Source: Candidatus Eiseniibacteriota bacterium (GTDB lineage: Bacteria; Eisenbacteria; RBG-16-71-46; JABDJR01). Taken from it: 64,000 bases of DNA. This document shows, piece by piece, positions 1,157 through 13,335 of the stretch (the first letter of the stretch is position 1; every line of letters begins with the position of its first letter). Under the pieces are notes generated by a model that saw only the letters and a list, made by a program, of their open reading frames with translations, did no database searches and had not been told where the DNA came from. Position numbers and translations under genes: made by a program. Where the stretch lies: assembly GCA_963783375.1 (NCBI GenBank), contig CAWANH010000029.1:960001-1024000 (forward strand), written 5' to 3'.

Positions 1157-1245
1157 TGGTGCCGGGAGGGAGACTTGAACTCCCACGGGCCTTGCGGCCC
1201 AACGGATTTTAAGTCCGTTGCGTCTACCCGTTTCGCCATCCCGGC
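1157..1245 (-). tRNA. tRNA-Leu(TAA)
   Basis: Reverse complement reads GCCGGGATGGCGAAACGGGTAGACGCAACGGACTTAAAATCCGTTGGGCCGCAAGGCCCGTGGGAGTTCAAGTCTCCCTCCCGGCACCA: acceptor stem, TAA anticodon, long variable arm, GTTCAA T-loop and encoded CCA. Confidence 0.96.
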
Positions 1246-2093: not shown

Positions 2094-2927
2094 TCAGCGG
2101 GACTGGCCGAACCGGCGCTTCAATTCCCCGAAAGTGATCCGCTCCACCGGCGTCTGGGCATCGTAACCGTCGCTGAATTCGATGGCGAAGAAATCCCGGT
2201 AGCTGCTGGACGTCCCCGGAATCAGCTCATCGGCGATCTCGATCACGGGATCGATCGTCCCCGTGGCGGTTCCCGTGGCCACCGCCCCGACACTGACGTT
2301 GAGCATCGATGCAGAGGCCGACATGCCGACGAGGGTGACCGTGTCGACGGGAATCGCCGGAGTCTGGTCGATGGTAAAGGCATCCGTGGCCGGATCGGAG
2401 GTCCCGGAATCCCCGTTCACGTCCAGGCTGGAGGTGATCAGAATCCCCGCGCCCACCGCCTGAAACCGAAAGGACGAGGTGGCGCGCGAGCCGAAGACGT
2501 TCCGGACCGCCCCCCCCCCGGTGGCCAGTAGGTGGACCGGCACGTCGGTCACGCTGACCGGCGGAGTGGCCGTCTCGACGACCCGGAACTGGAAGTCGAT
2601 GGAAACGATGCTGGACAGGTTGAGAGAAGTGTTCCCCTCGGAGATGTTCCAGGTGACCTCCGCCGTTCCTTCCGGAGGTCCCGCGGATCCAAATCCCACG
2701 CTCCCCGCAACCGCGTAGCCGATACCGGAGAGCTCCTCTGTATGAGACTCGGGAATCGCCGAATCGGAACCCTGGAAGCCGGCGGTGCTGGGACCGACGG
2801 TCAACGAAATGTTCTCCTCCCAGAGCGTGGACGAGAGAGGAAACTGCGCCTCAACGCGACCGGCAAGAAGAACCAGACCGGCGGCCATGAGAAGAAGAGT
2901 CGGTTTCATACGATGGGCAAACTTCAT
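2094..2927 (-). CDS. Secreted hypothetical protein with C-terminal TPVERITFGELKRRF tail
   Basis: RBS GAGGAGG, signal peptide (MKPTLLLMAAGLVLLAGRVEA/Q), a Ser/Thr/Gly-rich beta-type body and the C-terminal motif. Confidence 0.75.
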   Translation of the reverse strand: MKFAHRMKPTLLLMAAGLVLLAGRVEAQFPLSSTLWEENISLTVGPSTAGFQGSDSAIPESHTEELSGIGYAVAGSVGFGSAGPPEGTAEVTWNISEGNTSLNLSSIVSIDFQFRVVETATPPVSVTDVPVHLLATGGGAVRNVFGSRATSSFRFQAVGAGILITSSLDVNGDSGTSDPATDAFTIDQTPAIPVDTVTLVGMSASASMLNVSVGAVATGTATGTIDPVIEIADELIPGTSSSYRDFFAIEFSDGYDAQTPVERITFGELKRRFGQSR

Positions 2928-3490
2928 TTCAACATGCCTCCTCGATCGTGGACTCCATTGAAGCCGTCCATGCACCCGACCACGTCGCTGTGGAACGTCA
3001 CGGCATGTCAGCAAGCGGGTTTGTTGCAGCGGTCGCAAGCGTCGCCGCGGCTTTCCGCCCTGGCGACAGAAGGGATGCGGGGCGCGTATCCAGCCGGATC
3101 CTGGGTAAGCCCGTGGCGTCACATCGCTTCGGAGGCACCCGGTCGTCGGGCGAGCCTCGACCTGGTTGCCTCCATGGTTACGGCCCGGATTGCACTACAC
3201 CCGAGTTTCATACGACGAAAGAGTAACACATCCGGACTGACACAGTCCGAAATGGGTCCGGTCCCGGGCTCACGATTTTCGTAACCGATTGGAAATAAGA
3301 TGATTACCCAGGATCCGGCGCCGGTGCTCGAGATTCCAGACCGGCGGCGGGGGCCCGTGCCGCCGTTCCGGGGTAGGTCGGGAAACCGGCGGGCGCCGGC
3401 GCTTGGGGCGGGGCGCCGAACACCGGATCACAGATACTGTGGGGTACCGGGGGGAGGGCACCCGCCGGCCCTCCTTGCCCGACCGGAATG

Positions 3491-6189
3491 CTACTTCGCC
3501 AACCCCCGCCTCCAGTCGGTGACGAGCCGCAAGAAGCCCTTCTCGTCCTCGGAGACGTCCCCCCCCACGTAGAGGAGCCGGTCCCCGTCCGGGCCCAGCG
3601 AAACCGGAATCCCTCCCGCCACCGGCGCGGAGACCTGGGCGAAGAGCTTCGGCGCCCCGGTCTTGAAAGTGGACCCGCTCCCGTCCACGGGCACCTCCAT
3701 GACTTCCCCGGAGGCCTCGATGTAGAAGAGCTTCTTGCCGTGGGGGCCCCAGAACGGATAGACGCCTTCGTCCCGGTCGACCTGCCATTGCCGGTTTCCC
3801 CCGGTCATCGGGCGCACGATGACTTCCCACGCCCCGCTCGCGGACTGCTTGGTATAGGCGAACCACCGTCCATCGGGCGAGACCTGCGCCACCACGTCGA
3901 GCCCCTTGTCCCCGACCTTGAGTTCCATCTTCCCGGTGTCGACCGCCATCTCGTAGATGTTGTAGCCCGTGTCGGGATCCTCCCGGGTGACCATGAGGGT
4001 CGAGCCGTCGGGAGTCATCCCGTCAGAGGTGACTTCCTCCGTCCCCTCGTACAGGACCGTCGCCCCTCCGGTCCCCTCCACCGGCCGGCTCACGATACGA
4101 TAGGTGCTGTCCACCTGCGTTTCGTACAGGACCGACTTGCCGTCTGGGGTCCAGACCGCGTCCTGCTCGTCCCCGGGATCGAAGGTGAACCGCGTCCGGA
4201 GACCGGAGTCCAGGTTCACCAACCACAGGTCCGAGGTTTCGGTTTCGGGGTCGACCACCTCCACCACCGCCTGGGTGCCGTCCGGGGATACCCGCGGCCG
4301 CCGGAACTGTCCCGGCTCCCCCACCCGGCCGAGCTGGGTCCCGCTGGGTCCCGTCCAGGCCAGGAACTGTTCGGCGCTTCCGGTCGAGATCTGGTATGTG
4401 AGCATGCCCTCCCCGGTGGAGGAGTAGACGGCGCATACCGCGCCGCCCGACAGGACGAGGATGTTCTCCACCAGGGGAATACCGTCGGGTCCCAGCTTCC
4501 CGGTCCGGGGATCCATGGGGGTGGCCAGGAGGACCCCCTCCCGAACGGTGAGCAGGCTGCCGGCCGAGTACTCGGCCTGCGCTTCCGACGTGGCGATCAT
4601 CTGCGGGGGGCTTCCGTCCAGGGAGCCGATGTAGACCCGGTTGCTGTCGTTCCTGGCCGGTATCATGCGGGCGAGGAACAGGAACCGCTGTCCGCCGGGA
4701 AGGAACCGCGGCTCCCGGTGCGAGTTCTCGCCGTCATCTCTGTTGATCGTGGTGATCTCGACCGCGGTTCCCCCCGAGGCCGAAACCCGGTGGATCCCGC
4801 TCTTGTGATCGGGAGCGAAGAGGATCACGCCGTCCCGGTTCCAGGTGCCTCCCTTCATGTTGCTCGCCGGGCAGAGGACGACCGGGGGGCCGCCGGCCAC
4901 CGCGACCTTCTTGAGCTTCCCGTCCGAGGCGAACCCGACGTACCGGCTGTCCGGCGACCAGAAGGGATAAACCGCGTCGGTGGTGCCGGTGATGACGGTG
5001 GCGTCGGGGCTGTCCAGCCGCCGCAGGTGGAGGGTCACCGGCCCCGACGCGTCCCGGGCCGCATAGGCCATCATGGTCCCGTCGGGGGAGAGGGCGACCG
5101 GGCCGGGATCGGTCCCGCTGAGATCGAACGCCCCCCCGGGCGGAGGCGGGACGGTGAGGTTCAAGACCTGCGGGGGCGCGGACCGGCCGAGGACCTTCCA
5201 GCCCAGCATCACCCCTCCCACGGCCAAGGCGAGAGCGACCACCACGGTGGCCCAGAGGGGAAGGCCGCGCTTCCACCCGGGCGTGTCCTCCCCCCCTCTG
5301 AAATGCCGCTCAGGGATGACGCGGCCAGGATCGAGGAATCCATGGCCCCGCTCTCCAGGAAGATGCGGGCCTCCCCCACGTCCCGCAGCCGCCGCCGGGG
5401 ATCGCGCTCCAGGCACCGCTCCAGGAGCAGGCGCATACCGCGTGACGTGGTCTTGGGCAGCCGGTCCCATTCGATGTCGGCGCGCAACACCGCGGCCAGG
5501 GTGTCGCTCACCGTCTCGCCCTCGAACAGGCGCTTCCCCGAGAGCATCTCGAACAGGATCACCCCGAAGGACCAGATGTCGGCGCGCCGGTCCACCTTCT
5601 TCCCCCGCGCCTGCTCCGGGCTCATGTAGGCCGCGGTGCCCAGGATCACCCCACCCCCGGTCAGGGCGGCGGTGATGGTGGGCGAGTTCTCCAGGGCCTC
5701 CTCCTCGGCGGTTTCTCCCACGAAGGCCCGGGCCAGGCCGAAATCGAGGATCTTGACCTTGCCCTCGGAGCTCACCTTGATGTTGGCCGGCTTGAGATCG
5801 CGGTGGACGACGTGCCGCTCGTGGGCCTCCTCGAGTCCCGCGGCGAGCTGCCGGGCGATCTCGAGCGTCTCTTCCTCGGGGACCGGCCCCTGAAGAATGC
5901 GCTCGGAGAGGTCGGTCCCCTCGGCCAGCTCCATGGCCAGGAACCCCTGCCCGTCGGCTTCCTCCAGCCCGAAGATCGAGGCGATGTTGGGGTGCTGCAG
6001 CGACGCCAGCACCCGGGCCTCCCGCCGGAAGCGGGCCAGGCGCTCGGGATCCCGGGCGAAGTCCGGAGGCAGGAGCTTGACCGCAACCTCGCGCCCGAGC
6101 TTGGAGTCCCGGGCGCGATACACCTCCCCCATCCCTCCCTTGCCCAGGAACGCGGTGACTTCGTAGTGGCCGAGGGTCTTGCCGATCAG
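3491..6189 (-). CDS. Ser/Thr protein kinase with TM helix and TolB/PD40 beta-propeller; frameshifted at a C7 tract (5290-5296)
   Basis: Kinase motifs GKGGMGEVY, VAVK, HRDLKPAN, DFG and YMSPEQ lie in ORF 5209-6675. The TM helix and WSPD/SPDG repeats lie in ORF 3491-6460. One extra G joins the two frames. Confidence 0.85.
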
Positions 6190-6555
6190 GGGTACTGCTC
6201 CTCTCGGAATCGTGGAAACAAGATCCCGGGGCGGTCGCGTCCAGGAAATGGCGTTTTGAAGGGGACCGGAACGGGCGGAGTTTACCCCGGCTTCTCCGGA
6301 AACGCGAGCCATACCGGGAGGCCGGTTCGCCCTCTCGCCCACTTGGAGTCCCCTGCCGGACTCGACTTTCCCCGTTCGACCAGGCCACCGGCTCCCCTGA
6401 CGCCGATCGAACGGGCCGCGGGAACCCACGCTTCGTGACCGGGAACCCCTGCAACTCCATCCGGGCCGGATGCGTAGTGGAGGACGGGATCCGGGGGACG
6501 GGACGGTCCCTGGACTTGACCGGCGTTGGGAACGCCGCAAGGAGGACAGATCTCG

Positions 6556-7377
6556 GTGCCGGACCATGGCAATCGATCGAGGACCAACGGCTGCGCCCTG
6601 GTCGTCGCGGCCCTGTTGGCGGTGCCGCTCGTGGTGGTGGGTGTCGTGGCCCTGAGGACGTGGATACCTCTGCAACTGGCCGGCCGGAGCCTGGATGAGC
6701 TCGACCGGACCCTCGGGACCGAGGCGCGCTACACGCCTCCGCCTCTCGGCGCGATTCCCGCCGGGAGGATGGATCGCTTTCTCGAGCTTCGGGCTTCGCT
6801 GATGCGTTCGTGCGAGGACTATGCCGTCCTACGGGAAGGATTCGAAGCCGTCGCCTCCCTGGATTCGACCGAGACGCCGGATGTAGAAGGGACCGTCCGG
6901 GCGGCGCGGAGCGTGGGAGGCGCAGCGTTGGCGATCACGCCCTACATGGCCAGGTTCTTCAGGCTACGGAACACGACGTTGCTCGCGGACTCCATGGGGC
7001 TCGAGGAATACTCTTACATCTACGCGATGGCTTATCACGATCGTCTGCTGTCGGAGGAAACGCGTGCGGAGATCTTCTCGGACGGCGACGCCCTCTCCCC
7101 GGAAGCCTCGGAGATGCTGCGAGGATGTCTGGCGAGGCAACTGGAGGTCCTTGGTCCCGAGAACGCCGCGTCGGACTGGCGCGCCTCGCTCATGCAGGAG
7201 CTGGAGCGGATGGAGAGCGATCCCTCCCGGCTCCCCTGGCAGGACGGGCTGCCTCCCCCGATCGCCGCGAGCCTGACGCCCTATCGGGAGCGGCTCGATC
7301 GCGTGTTCTGTGGGGCCACAGCCGGCCTGGAGATGGAGCGGAGTACGCGTCGCGCCCTACGGATCGCACTCTACTGA
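6556..7377 (+). CDS. Hypothetical membrane-anchored protein
   Basis: RBS AGGAGG before a GTG; N-terminal hydrophobic helix (GCALVVAALLAVPLVVVGVVAL); no recognisable family. Confidence 0.65.
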   Translation: MPDHGNRSRTNGCALVVAALLAVPLVVVGVVALRTWIPLQLAGRSLDELDRTLGTEARYTPPPLGAIPAGRMDRFLELRASLMRSCEDYAVLREGFEAVASLDSTETPDVEGTVRAARSVGGAALAITPYMARFFRLRNTTLLADSMGLEEYSYIYAMAYHDRLLSEETRAEIFSDGDALSPEASEMLRGCLARQLEVLGPENAASDWRASLMQELERMESDPSRLPWQDGLPPPIAASLTPYRERLDRVFCGATAGLEMERSTRRALRIALY

Positions 7378-7495
7378 CCACCCGATCCGTGTGCGCACCG
7401 ACCCGGCCGGCCGCGGTGAGGCCCGGCCCGGTGGCAAACGGCGCCCGCCCGAGGACCGGGGCCGGTCCCATCGCCTCAGCGGGCAGGCCCCGGAC

Positions 7496-7524
7496 TTGAA
7501 ATGCTTAGCCCCTAAGTATAAAAT
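7496..7524 (+). promoter_or_regulatory. sigma70 promoter with internal palindromic operator; probably leaderless
   Basis: TTGAAA(7496)-17 nt-TAAAAT(7519). The spacer contains CTTAG-CCC-CTAAG. The ATG is at 7531. Confidence 0.7.
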
Positions 7525-7530
7525 AGGCCC

Positions 7531-7986
7531 ATGAGACTCCCCAGCGACATCCGGAGGAGATTTCAGGAACACGGGAGACGAGGAGGCGCAGAACGCTCCC
7601 GGCGCCTTTCCCCCGGCGCCCGAGCGGCCATCGCCAGACGCGCCGCCCTGAAGCGCTGGACAGCGGTTCGCTTCGGCGGCACTAGCTTCGCCGCCCTGCA
7701 ACTCCCCGGGGGCGAGTTGATCGACGCGGGGGTCGACGATCTCGCCACCGGAAAGGAAACTATCGAGAGCCTCCTGGTCTCGTTGGCCGCCCCCCGGCTT
7801 CGTCGCGAGAACGTCCCCCTCCCTTCGGCGACCCTCTCCGACCCGGACCTTCGCCTCTACCGGTTGCTCGAACGGTCCGAAGGCGACCTCGCGCATTCCA
7901 GATACCTGGCCTACCTGCGACGGGTAAGCTCGTTCGCGGACGCCTGCCACGCGTACTCGGCGGGTCGGAGTCGCCTTGCGGGATGA
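7531..7986 (+). CDS. Hypothetical protein with basic N-terminal nucleic-acid-binding-like module; partner of the downstream nucleotidyltransferase
   Basis: N-terminus GRRGGAERSRRLSPGARAAIARRAALKRW, helical C-domain, and an 11-nt overlap with the next gene. Confidence 0.75.
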   Translation: MRLPSDIRRRFQEHGRRGGAERSRRLSPGARAAIARRAALKRWTAVRFGGTSFAALQLPGGELIDAGVDDLATGKETIESLLVSLAAPRLRRENVPLPSATLSDPDLRLYRLLERSEGDLAHSRYLAYLRRVSSFADACHAYSAGRSRLAG

Positions 7987-8512
7987 ACTCACCCGCGAGC
8001 GGTTGGACGCGCTCATGCGGGAGATCGCCCGCACCGCTCCCCGCCGGGGCAGCTATCGGGTGTATCTGGTCGGCGGGGGAACCGCGGTTTACGCGGGGTG
8101 GCGTGCGTCCTCCATCGACGCCGATCTGTTCTCCGAACAGGAGGCGGTCTTTCACGACATCCAGGGCATCAAGGAGCGCCTCAACGTGAACGTCGAATTC
8201 GCCAGACCCGAACACTTCGTCCCCGCGCTCCGGGGAAGCGCCGGGCGCCACCTCTTCATCGAGACCATCGGACGCGTTTCCTTCTTCCACTACGACCCCT
8301 ACTCCCAGATCCTCTCGAAGATCGTCCGGGGCTTCCAGCGGGACGTCGACGATGCCCGCCACTTCGTGGAGAGCGGCATGGTGGAAGGCCCGAAACTCCG
8401 GGATCTGGTCGAGGGCATCCCGACCCCAGCCTACTCGAAGTATCCGAGCCTCTCCCGGCCGGCCGTCGTCGGGGCCGTCGACGCATTCCTGTCCGAGCTG
8501 CCGCGGGGGTAG
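7976..8512 (+). CDS. DUF6036-like nucleotidyltransferase
   Basis: Pol-beta-type NTase motif VYLVGGGTAV...RASSIDADL and C-terminal LSKIVRGFQRDVDD; TTG start. Confidence 0.75.
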   Translation: MRDELTRERLDALMREIARTAPRRGSYRVYLVGGGTAVYAGWRASSIDADLFSEQEAVFHDIQGIKERLNVNVEFARPEHFVPALRGSAGRHLFIETIGRVSFFHYDPYSQILSKIVRGFQRDVDDARHFVESGMVEGPKLRDLVEGIPTPAYSKYPSLSRPAVVGAVDAFLSELPRG

Positions 8513-8573
8513 AATCCGGTCCTGAAATCCCACGCCCCGGCCCGAACCGGTCGACCACCTTGGAGTCCCGCCC

Positions 8574-9113
8574 ATGCCCGACACCCACGGAACCATCCTC
8601 GAAACCGGGAGGCTCCTCCTCCGGGAACTGACCCTGGGCGATCTGGACGCGCTCGCCGCCCTCTACCGGGATCCCGAGGTGCGGCGCTACTTCCCGGAGG
8701 GCGTCCTCACCCGCGAGGAGACCCGCGAGGAGCTGGAGTGGATCATCCGGGAGTACTACGCCAAGCACGGCTTCGGCCTCTGGGCGACCATCCACAGGGA
8801 GTCCGGCGCCTTCATCGGCCGCTCGGGCCTTCTTCCCTGGACCATCGACGGGCGGGCCGAGGTGGAGGTGGCCTATCTGCTGGCCAGGGAGTACTGGGGT
8901 CGGGGCCTGGGCACCGAGGCCGCCCGGGCCATCGCGCACCATGCCTTCGATACCCTCCCGGTCTCCCGGCTCATCTGCCTGATCGACGCCCGGAACGCGG
9001 CCTCGCGCCGGGTCGCCGAGAAGATCGGGATGACCCTCTACCGGGACGATTTCGAGGACGACAAGGGCCCCGCCCACATCTACGCCATGGCGCGACCGGA
9101 GACGACATCATGA
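8574..9113 (+). CDS. GNAT N-acetyltransferase (RimJ/RimL family)
   Basis: LETGRLLLR start, YWGRGLGTEAA acetyl-CoA motif and NAASRRVAEKIGM. Confidence 0.92.
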   Translation: MPDTHGTILETGRLLLRELTLGDLDALAALYRDPEVRRYFPEGVLTREETREELEWIIREYYAKHGFGLWATIHRESGAFIGRSGLLPWTIDGRAEVEVAYLLAREYWGRGLGTEAARAIAHHAFDTLPVSRLICLIDARNAASRRVAEKIGMTLYRDDFEDDKGPAHIYAMARPETTS

Positions 9114-9646
9114 ACGACGCGATGAAGGAGACCGTCTGGCGACAGTTCGGCGCCGCCATCGACATGCTCGAGGGGGCCGTCCGGGCCTGTCCCGAATCGA
9201 TCTGGCGCGACCGCGATCGCCAACCGGAGACCTGGTACCTGGCCTACCACACGCTCTTCTGGCTCGATCTCTATCTCTCGGGGCCGGTGGAAGGGTTCCG
9301 CCCGCCGACGCCCTTCGGCCTGGAGGAACTCGACCCGGCGGGAGTCCTCCCCGATCGCGTGTACACCCGGGAGGAACTCCTGACCTACCTGGAGCACGGC
9401 CGCCGCAAGTGCCGCTCGACCATCACCAACCTGACCGACGACAAGGCGGCGGAACGACATGCATTCGGCTGGGGGGAAGCGAGCTTCGCCGAACTCCTCC
9501 TCTACAACCTTCGCCACGTGCAGCACCATACCGCGCAGCTCAACCTCATCCTCAGGCAGTCGATCGATTCCGCCCCTCCATGGGTAACCCGGACGGGAAA
9601 CCACCTCCCGTCCTCTGAACTCCACGGCAATCCGCACGCCCGGTAG
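9110..9646 (+). CDS. DinB family protein
   Basis: QFGAAIDML...WYLAYHTLFW...LRHVQHHTAQL (His triad); ATGA overlap with the GNAT gene. Confidence 0.88.
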   Translation: MNDAMKETVWRQFGAAIDMLEGAVRACPESIWRDRDRQPETWYLAYHTLFWLDLYLSGPVEGFRPPTPFGLEELDPAGVLPDRVYTREELLTYLEHGRRKCRSTITNLTDDKAAERHAFGWGEASFAELLLYNLRHVQHHTAQLNLILRQSIDSAPPWVTRTGNHLPSSELHGNPHAR

Positions 9647-9676
9647 CCGCTCCGTCACCCGCGCCGAAACCGGATC

Positions 9677-10684
9677 TCACTTCTCCAGCCGCACGTCGTC
9701 CCACCAGAGCGAGACCGGCTTGCGGACGTGCACGATGAAGAGCGTGACGCTCTGGATCCGGGCCATGTCGAGGAGCCGCGCCCGGGGGCTCCGCCGGATC
9801 TCCTCCAGCGGGATCCGAAAGGTGTTCATCCCGGGTTTGAGGCTCAGGTTCACGTAGGCCGCCCGGGTCCAGTCGTTTCCCACCGTGACGTCGTCGATCC
9901 GAAGCGCCATCGGAATCGTGTCCGGGAGGGTGGAGACCATCTCGAAGTCCAGGCTCCGGTATCTCCGCCAGTCGGGAACCGGCTCGCGGAGGGTGAGCCC
10001 GGCGTAGTCGACCGGCTTCAGGATCAGGTGGGCGGCGCGGTTCTCCGGGTCCTTCCGATACGGAGCCGGCAGGGGTTCAAAGCTCATCTCTGTCTCGTGG
10101 CTGAAGTAGAAGTAGTGCTCCCAGGGCGCGTCGAACCCGAAAAGGAGCGGAAACGCCTCATCCCGCTTCGCGTAGGCGTCCCCCACCTCCACCACCGGCC
10201 GGGCCACGATCCCCACCGGGATGAGGGCCAGCAAGACCACGGTCACCCGGAGGGGGGCCCGCCAGCGGGCGGGAATCCGGAGCGTCGCGTCCACCGCCGC
10301 GGCCAGGAGCAGGCAGGCGACGATCCCGGCCAGGTCCCGCTCCCAGTCCCCCAGGTCGGCGTCCCGCCCGGTGAAGTGCTGGAGGATCTCGCTCCCCAGG
10401 CCGGCGGTCGCGGCCAGGAAGAAGACCCCAACGTACCGGCCGAGCCTCCGCCACCCCCGGGCCGGCCACGCCCGGACCATCGCCCAGAGCGCGATCCAGG
10501 CGAACACCCCGAAGAGCGGGGCATGGCCCGCGTTGAACACCACGTCCCACCAGGCGCTCGCGCCCGGGGGCACGAAGACCTCGAGCACCACGATCAACGC
10601 GGCCAGGGCCAGCGACGCCAGGGCAAGGGAGCGCTTGCGGTGGGGCGCGCCGTGCCCCGACTCGCGGGAAGCGATCGCGCTCAC
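9677..10684 (-). CDS. VanZ-like membrane protein fused to a periplasmic jelly-roll/carbohydrate-binding-like domain
   Basis: NAGHAPLFG and SEILQHFTGRDADLGDWERDLAG are VanZ-like. The C-terminal region DWRRYRSLDF...LKPGMNTFRIPL...WWDDVRLE looks like a beta-sandwich. Confidence 0.75.
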   Translation of the reverse strand: MSAIASRESGHGAPHRKRSLALASLALAALIVVLEVFVPPGASAWWDVVFNAGHAPLFGVFAWIALWAMVRAWPARGWRRLGRYVGVFFLAATAGLGSEILQHFTGRDADLGDWERDLAGIVACLLLAAAVDATLRIPARWRAPLRVTVVLLALIPVGIVARPVVEVGDAYAKRDEAFPLLFGFDAPWEHYFYFSHETEMSFEPLPAPYRKDPENRAAHLILKPVDYAGLTLREPVPDWRRYRSLDFEMVSTLPDTIPMALRIDDVTVGNDWTRAAYVNLSLKPGMNTFRIPLEEIRRSPRARLLDMARIQSVTLFIVHVRKPVSLWWDDVRLEK

Positions 10685-11400
10685 CGCGCCCCCGGCACGG
10701 TCACGGTGACCGGGTCGCTCGGTGCGCTCTCGTTGAAGGCGTCGTCCACCACGGTCACGCGATAGGTGTAGTTCGAGTCGGGCTCGACGGTGAAGTCCTC
10801 GAACCCGGCGGACCGGAGATCGGGGACGAATCCCTGGAGCGGAAACGGCGGATCCCGGAAGAGATTGTAGTGATGGAAAGCGGGATCGTCCGACGCCTCC
10901 CAGCCCAGCACCACCTCGTAGCGACCGGCGATGTCGTTCAGAACCGCCCGGGCGGTGAGCCCCTGCGGGGGCGCGGGAGCGGTGAAATCCACCCGGACCC
11001 ATACCACCCCGGTGGGAAGGCTCTCGATCCCCGCCGGGCTGACCGAGGTCAACCGGTACCAGTAGCGAACGCCGTCCACCACGTCCTCGTCCACCAGAAT
11101 GCTCCCGGTGAAGAGTTCCCGGTTCAGCCGCACGTAATCGGCATCCGCGGGCGGCGACTCCCCCACCGCCCGGTAGACGTTGAAACCGTCGATGAAGGCG
11201 AACAGGCCCGGGTCGGCCTGCCAGGTCACGTTCACCGAGCCCACCGACGGGAGCGCCAGGAGGTCGGTGGGCAGGGGAAGCGAGGCCGGGGCGCGAAAGG
11301 CCGCGGTCGGGGTCACGGTGTGCCCGCAACCCGCGAGCGCGACGAGAACCGCCGGCCACAGGGCGAGCGAAAGAACGCGAAGCCGCGGGCGGCGCCTCAT
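10681..11400 (-). CDS. Lipoprotein with two fibronectin type III-like domains
   Basis: Lipobox LAGC, plus FN3 patterns (VTW...FNVYR...YWYRLTSV...ES and LGW...YNLFR...YTYRVTVVD...NES). Confidence 0.8.
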   Translation of the reverse strand: MRRRPRLRVLSLALWPAVLVALAGCGHTVTPTAAFRAPASLPLPTDLLALPSVGSVNVTWQADPGLFAFIDGFNVYRAVGESPPADADYVRLNRELFTGSILVDEDVVDGVRYWYRLTSVSPAGIESLPTGVVWVRVDFTAPAPPQGLTARAVLNDIAGRYEVVLGWEASDDPAFHHYNLFRDPPFPLQGFVPDLRSAGFEDFTVEPDSNYTYRVTVVDDAFNESAPSDPVTVTVPGAR

Positions 11401-12269
11401 CGCTTCCACCGCCATGCCGGGCTCGTGGCCAACGCGAGGCTCCACCGCGTGCCGGAGAGCGTGTTCCGCCCCCACACCGTGGTTCGCGCCTCCGCCTCCA
11501 CCGCCACTCCGCGCCCAGCGGCCACCGACACCGTCGCGGCCAGGTCGAGGTTGTCGGGATCCACGGTGGAGGGGTCGAAGCGAGTCTCTCCCGGCCGGGC
11601 CGGCGGGGGCCCCACCGCGACGCCGCCTCGGGCTTCGCCCCGAAGACCCACCCGCGAGCCGATGCCCGTCCCCCCCCCGATCGCCCCCTCCACCCGGTCC
11701 CGAAACACCCCGCCCCGGAAGACGTAGGCCGCGTCCAGGTTTCCCCAGTAGCCGGTGAAGGACGACCCCGCCGAGAGTCCCAGGGAGAGATCGCGAATGC
11801 CCGAGCCGAGGGCGGGGTACTCCTCGACCGCGTAGCCGGTGGGGAAGGTGGCGGCGGCCAGGACCGAGGCCACCCCGCGCGATCCCCGCCAGAGCCCGCG
11901 CTTCACCCCCACCGCCAGATCGGAGAACCCGTAGGTCTCGAACACCGCCGAGGGCTGGTTGGCCTGAAGGCGCTTCCAGGACCCCGCGGCCACCAGGTTC
12001 CAGCCCGGAAGGAGCCCGACCTCGGCGTACATCGCCACCGCCAGGTCCTCGTACCGGGTGTTCCGGAAACCGCCCCCGGCGGCGTCGAAGGGGACGGCGC
12101 GACCATCCTGATCGAGCCGCTCCCGGGTGGAGAGCGCACCGGCGGAGAGGCGGAGGTAGGCGGTTCCGGGCTCCTGGAGCCACGCTCCCGCCCGGGCCGG
12201 GCCGGAGCCCCCGAGGAGAGTCACGAGGGCGAGCAGGACGGCCACCCGGGCCCTGGGTTCGAAGCGCAT
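11397..12269 (-). CDS. Exported hypothetical protein, probable outer-membrane beta-barrel
   Basis: Signal peptide ending ARA/GAWLQEPG; amphipathic beta-strand pattern (YAEVGL, GFSDLAVGVK, TGY). Confidence 0.65.
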   Translation of the reverse strand: MRFEPRARVAVLLALVTLLGGSGPARAGAWLQEPGTAYLRLSAGALSTRERLDQDGRAVPFDAAGGGFRNTRYEDLAVAMYAEVGLLPGWNLVAAGSWKRLQANQPSAVFETYGFSDLAVGVKRGLWRGSRGVASVLAAATFPTGYAVEEYPALGSGIRDLSLGLSAGSSFTGYWGNLDAAYVFRGGVFRDRVEGAIGGGTGIGSRVGLRGEARGGVAVGPPPARPGETRFDPSTVDPDNLDLAATVSVAAGRGVAVEAEARTTVWGRNTLSGTRWSLALATSPAWRWKR

Positions 12270-12492
12270 GAGGGGATGATACGGCCTAGGGTGAGGGCCG
12301 GTCGAAGGTAAGGGGACCCGGCCGGACCGGCGGCCCTGACCGACATGAAACGAAATCGCAATTCATTCGTGTATGAACCGGCAAGATGAGGTATCATGCC
12401 GGCCAAGAGGCGTCCCCTGGGAATTCAGCCCCGTCCTCCCCGGACGGTGTGAATCTCCCCCCATGCAACACGGTCATCCCCCGGAGGTACCC

Positions 12493-13335
12493 ATGAGTTC
12501 CTTGCGAAAACATCCCGAGTCCCCGCTCCGTTCCCGTCCGCTGGCCCTCATTCTCTTCGGCCTGGTCGCGCTGGGCCTGGCCGCCGCCCCCGCGGCCCAG
12601 GCCGGGTCGATCTTCCTCACCGGTCATGATCCGGACTTCCACGCGACCCGGGGACTGAACGCGGCCGGCGCCCAGACCATCAACAACGTGGCCATCAACT
12701 TCATCCGCGATCCCGGATTCAACCCCTACTTCGCCACCGCCCCCAAGTTCCTGTACGTGGAGTCCAGCATCACCCCGCCCACCGGCCATACCGTGGGCAA
12801 GGCCGGCATCGTGGCCAGCGGCTACGTCGAAGGGGTCGACTTCGACCATCACGACGCCTCCACCCTCGCCGCCGCCCTCGGCCAGCTCGGCCAGCCCGGC
12901 GGCTACTGCGCCATCGTGGTCGGCTCCGATTTCGGGGGGATCCTCACCCAGGCCGAACTCGACATCCTGAACGCGAACCAGGCGGCCATCGCCACCTTCG
13001 TGAACTCGGGCGGGGGAATCTACGCCATGTCCGAGGGGAACTCCGGCGCCGGTCTCACCCCCGGCGGCGGACACTACGCGTTCATTCCCACCGTGGTCTC
13101 GGCGGCCAGCGTGGACCAGGGCGAGACCGGGTTCACCGTGACCCCGTTCGGAGTGGGGCTGGGGCTGGCCGACAGCGACGTCAACGGGAACGCGTCCCAC
13201 GTGGTCTTCACCGCCACCGCGGGGTTGAGCGTGGTGGACACCGACGCCTCCGGCCGGATCCTCTCCATCGCGGGGCGGGAGCAGGTGATCCCGACCCGGC
13301 CCACGACCTGGAGCCGGATCAAGTCGCAGTACTGA
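12493..13335 (+). CDS. Secreted protein with C-terminal IPTRPTTWSRIKSQY tail
   Basis: RBS GGAGG, signal peptide ending AAQA, GSIFLTGHDPDFHA domain and the C-terminal motif. Confidence 0.85.
   Translation: MSSLRKHPESPLRSRPLALILFGLVALGLAAAPAAQAGSIFLTGHDPDFHATRGLNAAGAQTINNVAINFIRDPGFNPYFATAPKFLYVESSITPPTGHTVGKAGIVASGYVEGVDFDHHDASTLAAALGQLGQPGGYCAIVVGSDFGGILTQAELDILNANQAAIATFVNSGGGIYAMSEGNSGAGLTPGGGHYAFIPTVVSAASVDQGETGFTVTPFGVGLGLADSDVNGNASHVVFTATAGLSVVDTDASGRILSIAGREQVIPTRPTTWSRIKSQY

Follow-up and report, generated by a model that had tools for sequence, protein, structure and literature searches.

A short C-terminal tail shared by unrelated exported proteins of an Eisenbacteria genome, a candidate sorting or anchoring tag

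We analysed a window of 64,000 nucleotides from Candidatus Eiseniibacteriota bacterium (assembly GCA_963783375.1, contig CAWANH010000029.1, positions 960,001 to 1,024,000 of the forward strand), in which two predicted exported proteins end in the same short tail, here called the TWG tail. The minus-strand open reading frame (ORF) 2927-2094 terminates in TPVERITFGELKRRFGQSR and the plus-strand ORF 12493-13335 in IPTRPTTWSRIKSQY (Table 1). The ATG starts at 2927 and 12493 were preferred over the longer ORFs listed; the resulting N-termini are hydrophobic and signal-peptide-like. Proteins 1 and 2 are not BLAST relatives (neither retrieves the other), and neither has a Pfam or NCBIfam match. A fold search with protein 2 gave a weak likeness to peptidase E and nothing at E ≤ 0.001. 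The claim of a preliminary description of this DNA, that two unrelated exported proteins share a C-terminal motif, therefore stands. The consensus of the tail is P-[VT]-E-x-x-[TS]-W-[GS]-x-[ILV]-K-x-x-Y; it ends both proteins, protein 1 with a drifted TFG form.

The regular expression [TS][WF][GS].[ILV]K..[YFW] gave 72 matches in 66,863 six-frame ORFs of this genome, and 68 of the 72 lay within 10 residues of the stop, one of them judged spurious by eye. Only 8.7% of positions are as near to an ORF end as these stop-proximal matches. Five shuffles of the ORF residues gave 0-2 matches each, with 0 near an end. The frequency and C-terminal placement of the tail are far beyond chance. Counts out of 72 below refer to a working set of 72 tail ORFs from a profile search (four are near-duplicate contig copies); four further degenerate tails lie outside it. 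The many C-terminally restricted copies expected earlier were thus found. Relative to W, which is present in 70 of the 72, P stands at -6 in 62 and T or S at -1 in 72; in all 72, G or S follows W, I/L/V/M occupies +3 and K occupies +4, while Y/F stands at +7 in 70. The Lys lies 3-16 residues from the C-terminus and is never the last residue; exactly four residues follow it in 36/72.

Signal peptides were assigned to 61 of the 72 tail ORFs, 55 by a permissive heuristic (passed by 936 of 3165 control genes) and six by eye, in line with the earlier expectation that nearly all carriers have one. The 17 heuristic-negative ORFs comprise these six clear signal peptides, one N-terminal membrane segment and 10 fragments or frameshifted genes. 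Many genes of this genome, sprA included, are frameshifted, probably by assembly errors. The passengers of the tail form 46 BLAST clusters, 34 of which are singletons. Choice-of-anchor domains (types E, V, W or X) account for five of the 40 scanned passengers; the E, V and W matches and one X exceed the cut-off, as does the second X (31.9 vs. 25). Cupredoxin, beta-helix, immunoglobulin-like and phosphoesterase domains were also seen. No Pfam or NCBIfam model spans the tail in the library scans of passengers, which upholds the view that it is not a known tail type. Tail proteins have a median of 224 residues vs. 678 for proteins bearing the type IX secretion system (T9SS) C-terminal domain (CTD), and 64 of 67 tail proteins have at most 400 residues. 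No neighbour gene recurs at the tail loci of this genome.

Homologs of these proteins exchange the tail for other C-terminal signals. Among the best 120 of 680 protein-2 homologs, 39 carry the TWG tail and 81 a PEP-CTERM-type transmembrane (TM) tail, of which 78 were assigned by rule and the remaining three by eye; both kinds begin directly after the last strand. When 114 of these homologs were placed in a quick tree (six were dropped because their anchors were not found), three changes of tail label were needed, though a single change may suffice. Among the best 120 of 231 choice-of-anchor V homologs, we counted 53 TWG tails, 28 T9SS CTDs, 7 TM tails and 32 other ends, which include dockerins (PF00404). 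Tail swapping with both PEP-CTERM and T9SS CTDs, which the preliminary description had proposed as a check, was therefore observed. In the choice-of-anchor V set a T[PAG]V[ED]-like linker, a motif picked post hoc from the same data, stands at the same offset (median 10) in 27/46 TWG, 20/28 CTD and 4/37 other ends. In this genome the motif occurs before 49 of 102 CTDs and in 32 of 395 control windows, and it opens 34 of the 72 tails. A P-L-A-V-E-L-S-A-F module, usually found ahead of CTDs, is followed by a TWG tail in one case (P0354). The CTD profile built from this genome, in which 124 ORFs have a CTD, hit 0/72 tail ORFs. We concluded that the tail is modular, C-terminal, many-to-one, carried by signal-peptide proteins and exclusive with the CTD, and that PEP-CTERM, CTD, dockerin or TM tails take its place in homologs at one and the same junction.

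The protein-1 subfamily shows drift of the tail. All 25 matches in a search with protein 1 (itself and 24 homologs) end in the tail or in TFG, TMG, TLG or TIS variants, with W relaxed to F, M, L or I. A broken protein-1 paralog (C29:1503407-1503844) has a tail that has drifted further.

The AlphaFold model of protein 2 places a helix over W to Q (residues 243-249, pLDDT about 49) after the folded domain. On this predicted helix, W, I/L (W+3), the invariant Lys (W+4) and Y (W+7) would lie on one face. The hydrophobic moment of the segment as a helix (100 degrees) is 0.35, against 0.46 at 160 degrees; the mean hydrophobicity from W to Y is about 0, and the net charge from W to the end is +1.9. 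With W, I/L, K and Y on a common face and a modest moment, the predicted tail resembles a site of protein recognition more closely than a simple helix for membrane binding or lipid anchoring. The tail had been described earlier as an amphipathic helix, which holds in part: the helix agrees with the low-confidence model, whereas the Lys on the W/I/L/Y face and the modest moment speak against amphipathicity. A search of the ESM Atlas with the last 31 residues gave no usable match.

The taxonomic counts come from short profiles and are lower bounds; genomes called tail-negative may hold diverged tails. Within its own phylum, 116 of 121 genomes have the tail; genomes of one family (f5) contain 0-6 copies and others up to at least 72. 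A pattern scan gave at least 131 stretches, and the matches listed were mostly from Poribacteria, in the form V[ED]PxxKLxTTWGxIK; the others listed came from Fermentibacteria, Latescibacteria and Eisenbacteria records, together with about a dozen chance matches. Three Poribacteria genomes (150 scored candidates each) have at least 38, 95 and 52 tail matches. In Latescibacterota the tail is present in 19/61 genomes, with T-A-V-E-x-x-T-W-G verified on signal-peptide proteins, and a Krumholzibacteria protein (P0331) also carries it. The earlier statement that such tails occur in Eisenbacteria, Poribacteria and Krumholzibacteria was thus borne out. The tail is real, widespread and uncatalogued; no description of it was found in full-text literature searches, though supplements and subscription journals may mention one.

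Neighbouring genes were also inspected at tail loci of other genomes. At 21 Latescibacterota tail loci no partner recurs; several adjoin a CTD gene, mostly in one locus family. No partner recurs at 20 tail loci of the tail-poor family f5, where the passengers are the same as in this genome. One unnamed, tandem-expanded tail-bearing family of ~310-370 residues in Latescibacterota (L195-L198, L207, L208, L213) often adjoins a gene with a FlgD/CHU_C-like C-terminal domain. In a genome titled Pseudomonadota (G191, L081), three tails are of the Poribacteria type and PorU gave no match; its contigs are possibly misbinned.

Table 1. Coordinates of the tailed proteins of the window and of lipoprotein-like tail genes elsewhere in the genome (C28, contig handle)
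Feature	Position	Strand	Basis or remark
Exported protein 1, 277 aa	2094..2927	minus	ORF calls and Pfam/NCBIfam scans; its tail has drifted to a TFG form
Protein 1, predicted Sec signal peptide (27 aa, VEA end)	2847..2927	minus	judged from the sequence; heuristic score 2.83
Protein 1, TWG tail (TPVERITFGELKRRF and four more residues)	2097..2153	minus	regular expression and hidden Markov model (HMM) score 16.5
Exported protein 2, 280 aa, alpha/beta domain	12493..13335	plus	homologs with either TWG tail or PEP-CTERM
Protein 2, predicted Sec signal peptide (37 aa, AQA end)	12493..12603	plus	judged from the sequence; heuristic score 2.99
Protein 2, TWG tail (IPTRPTTWSRIKSQY)	13288..13332	plus	HMM score 26.4; predicted low-confidence helix after the domain's last strand
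Lipoprotein-like tail genes	C28:946861, 947580, 948269		tail present
Lipoprotein-like genes	C28:945968, 1456758		degenerate tail

In the window, a tRNA-Leu(TAA) gene (1157-1245, minus strand) is separated from the end of protein 1 by ~850 bases. A Ser/Thr kinase ORF and a PD40 propeller ORF in different frames (3491-6132, minus strand) are probably a single frameshifted gene. Two overlapping genes at 7531-8512 (plus strand), the second with a weak match to the DUF6036 nucleotidyltransferase, are presumably toxin-antitoxin-like. On contig C28, the tail ends three of four tandem paralogous lipoprotein-like genes (L253, 945968-948916), and the fourth ends in a degenerate form of it. An ECF (extracytoplasmic function) sigma/anti-sigma-like locus on the same contig (L252) adjoins tonB/exbD-like genes.

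Interchangeable tails on exported domains had been taken as a sign of sorting or surface anchoring, and this reading is supported by the predictions borne out above. The tail very likely acts as a sorting or anchoring tag. That T9SS reads it as a miniature third signal class for small cargo is a leading possibility, which we rate at slightly under even. If so, tailed proteins would be exported by Sec first. The Thr/Pro linker (T[PAG]V[ED]) would space the folded domain from an 8-residue helix, and the helix face of W, I/L, the invariant K and Y would be bound by a receptor. We guess that the receptor might be SprA, a carrier of the PorV family or some other T9SS component, that the cargo might cross the outer membrane via SprA, and that PorU may trim and anchor it. 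It was reported in PMC3120885 that a CTD stub of 22 residues brought green fluorescent protein (GFP) to the surface in a porT-dependent manner. According to PMC10994853, only one position of the CTD is nearly invariant, a Lys close to the C-terminus, which contacts PorV.

The genomes that host the tail nearly always encode SprA (three fragmented tail-bearing genomes are without a match), and PorV and PorU were matched in this genome (PorU below cut-off) and in others. This genome has an SprA split over two frames (L001, C29:765039-771346), six PorV-family genes above cut-off, and six C25 peptidases, one of which is PorU-like (401.5 bits vs. a cut-off of 420). SprA was found in 118/121 own-phylum and 60/61 Latescibacterota genomes. 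Tail-bearing genomes of three other phyla gave SprA-like and PorV matches in 5/5, with SprA above cut-off in 2/5. In Latescibacterota, canonical PorU is above cut-off in 35/61 genomes, and the tail occurs in 19 of these 35 and in 0 of the 26 PorU-less genomes, which also have few CTD-like candidates. These 26 (G132, G138, G142 and 23 others) keep SprA and have only a ~1900-residue PorU-like protein, a reduced T9SS. Taken together, the in-register linker, the exclusivity with the CTD and the nesting within PorU-bearing genomes tie the tail modestly to T9SS. Most PorV-family genes of this genome (L234-L243) stand directly behind a large CTD-bearing gene, which suggests cognate carrier-cargo pairs; two are orphans, one of them the near-universal PorV2-like gene.

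Several observations weigh against reading by T9SS. SprA is equally common in tail-negative Latescibacterota and 0/81 Bacteroidota genomes have the tail with the same profile, so T9SS is not sufficient for the tail. The 26 genomes without canonical PorU possibly belong to a single clade, so that the PorU-tail split may be a single event. The Poribacteria genomes with at least 38 to at least 95 tails have only long PorU-like proteins below cut-off, and G113, G116 and G140, which are tail-bearing and fragmented, gave no SprA match. Tail genes are not enriched beside CTD genes (10/67 vs. 6.5 at random). The tail is predicted to be helical and not a seven-stranded sandwich as in CTDs. At -6 the CTDs of this genome have R in 56/120 vs. 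K in 40/120, and the tail Lys lies at about -5 in the predicted helix. PMC3120885 also reports that the CTD Lys was dispensable in GFP fusions. Cleavage by PorU is, according to PMC4804311, independent of sequence, which weakens the linker argument. About 3-5 lipoprotein-like proteins bear the tail, unlike the CTD genes, of which 0/110 have a lipobox. The tail is also carried by a single-TM, inner-membrane anti-sigma-like protein encoded behind an ECF sigma gene (L252:1951-3739, contig C28); in 25 of 42 homologs examined it was found in 5/5 members of family f1 and 0/20 others.

The last two points would be expected if the tail were an uncleaved docking peptide, similar to a miniature dockerin, for a dedicated T9SS-independent envelope receptor or scaffold (periplasmic, outer-membrane or S-layer). 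We regard this as unlikely, but the most serious of the alternatives. Among choice-of-anchor V homologs the tail swaps with dockerin. It has also been acquired by a membrane-tethered protein, places W, I, K and Y on one predicted face, sits on mostly small cargo, and was not found in the T9SS-rich Bacteroidota; against this, cohesin does not track the tail, no neighbour gene recurs, and the range of the tail so far lies inside T9SS-bearing lineages. It is improbable that the invariant Lys is the acceptor of a covalent cross-link, made to peptidoglycan via an L,D-transpeptidase or to PorU-activated cargo. K is invariant in 72/72 whereas W and Y tolerate F, it lies near the end, and PorU tracks the tail in Latescibacterota. 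However, the tail K is never the last residue, unlike in Braun's lipoprotein Lpp, whose very last Lys is joined to peptidoglycan by L,D-transpeptidase, and the passengers elsewhere bear surface anchors and not cell-wall ones.

A generic amphipathic helix lying on the membrane surface with no dedicated reader, as in the C-terminal anchor of E. coli PBP5, is very improbable. The predicted helix, the interfacial W and Y and the positive net charge fit such an anchor, but the helix has only about 8 residues and its moment at 100 degrees is modest; moreover, the K is invariant within an apolar face and the G/S is invariant, which implies sequence-specific reading. Least tenable, and largely refuted, is a truncated PEP-CTERM or IPTL-CTERM signal processed by exosortase. 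The tail begins at the same junction as VPEP and resembles the IPTLxxWG signature, and this genome has one exosortase (PF09721). The same genome also has four true PEP-CTERM targets, while the tail has no TM segment. Exosortase was found in 0/5 tail-bearing genomes of other phyla and was not found in 32/121 own-phylum genomes, among them the tail-rich, near-complete G006 (at least 65 tails, 99% complete), G001 (at least 42, 100%) and G082 (at least 71, 99%), as well as G015 and G048.

Phylogenetic profiling for co-occurring machinery had been suggested in the preliminary description. In Latescibacterota, the tail-bearing genomes are nested within those with canonical PorU. As tracking readers we rejected exosortase, for the distribution just given, and four further candidates: the orphan PorV2-like barrel, present in 79/80 genomes, tail-positive and tail-negative alike; cohesin, present in 69/80, including tail-negative genomes, with none in the tail-bearing G001, G123, G124 and G186; the DUF5683-like protein of the PorU operon, present in 70/80 without tracking the tail; and SprA itself, near-universal in Latescibacterota. 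No partner recurs in the gene neighbourhoods of SprA or PorV in the other phyla.

Taken broadly, the tail, which has neither a TM segment nor a folded domain, could mark cargo for an undescribed envelope system of sorting or docking, many-to-one in kind and shared by at least five uncultured phyla. A receptor as yet unnamed would then recognise the W-x-x-I-K-x-x-Y helix, whether borne by soluble cargo, by lipoproteins or by an inner-membrane anti-sigma factor, which would thereby sense that machinery. We put this forward tentatively, and doubt it more than we favour it. Roughly 2% of this genome's genes bear the tail, and in Poribacteria the number reaches up to about a hundred or more. Hardly any of these genes is annotated, so that a single short profile places them in the cell envelope. 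If T9SS reads the tail, a helix of 15-20 residues replaces a folded domain of 70-80, which would change what T9SS can recognise, extend T9SS well beyond Bacteroidota and provide a very small display tag. If another receptor does so, the tail would be a sorting-signal design outside the tripartite and CTD kinds. The split in Latescibacterota (19/61) is a ready contrast set for finding the reader.

Among known systems, the tail shares most with the T9SS type A CTD (TIGR04183/PF18962; FlgD_ig PF13860). Both are C-terminal and many-to-one on Sec cargo, with the same passengers, junction linker and genomes and possibly a comparable conserved Lys near the end. The tail differs in being about 15-20 residues long and predicted helical, whereas the CTD is a beta-sandwich of 70-80 residues and seven strands; it also occurs on small cargo, lipoproteins and an inner-membrane protein, and was not found in the 81 Bacteroidota. 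Type I dockerin (PF00404), the partner of cohesin (PF00963), is likewise an alternative C-terminal module on the same passenger family, with a short helix after an S/T pair. The tail, however, has no calcium-binding repeat, no gene with a dockerin motif was found in this genome, and cohesin does not track the tail. The tripartite signals (PEP-CTERM PF07589/exosortase, IPTL-CTERM, GlyGly-CTERM, MYXO-CTERM and LPXTG) resemble it in having unrelated signal-peptide carriers whose homologs bear other signals, PEP-CTERM being replaced at the same junction. Of the Haft attributes given in 10.1101/2023.06.07.544157, the tail shows 1, 2, 6, 7 and 8. It differs from these signals in having neither a TM helix nor an Arg cluster, in having its signature at the end and not at the start, and in not requiring exosortase. 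Because it lacks the TM and Arg-cluster features and the CTD fold, we place the tail in neither the tripartite nor the CTD family, although it likely works like one of them.

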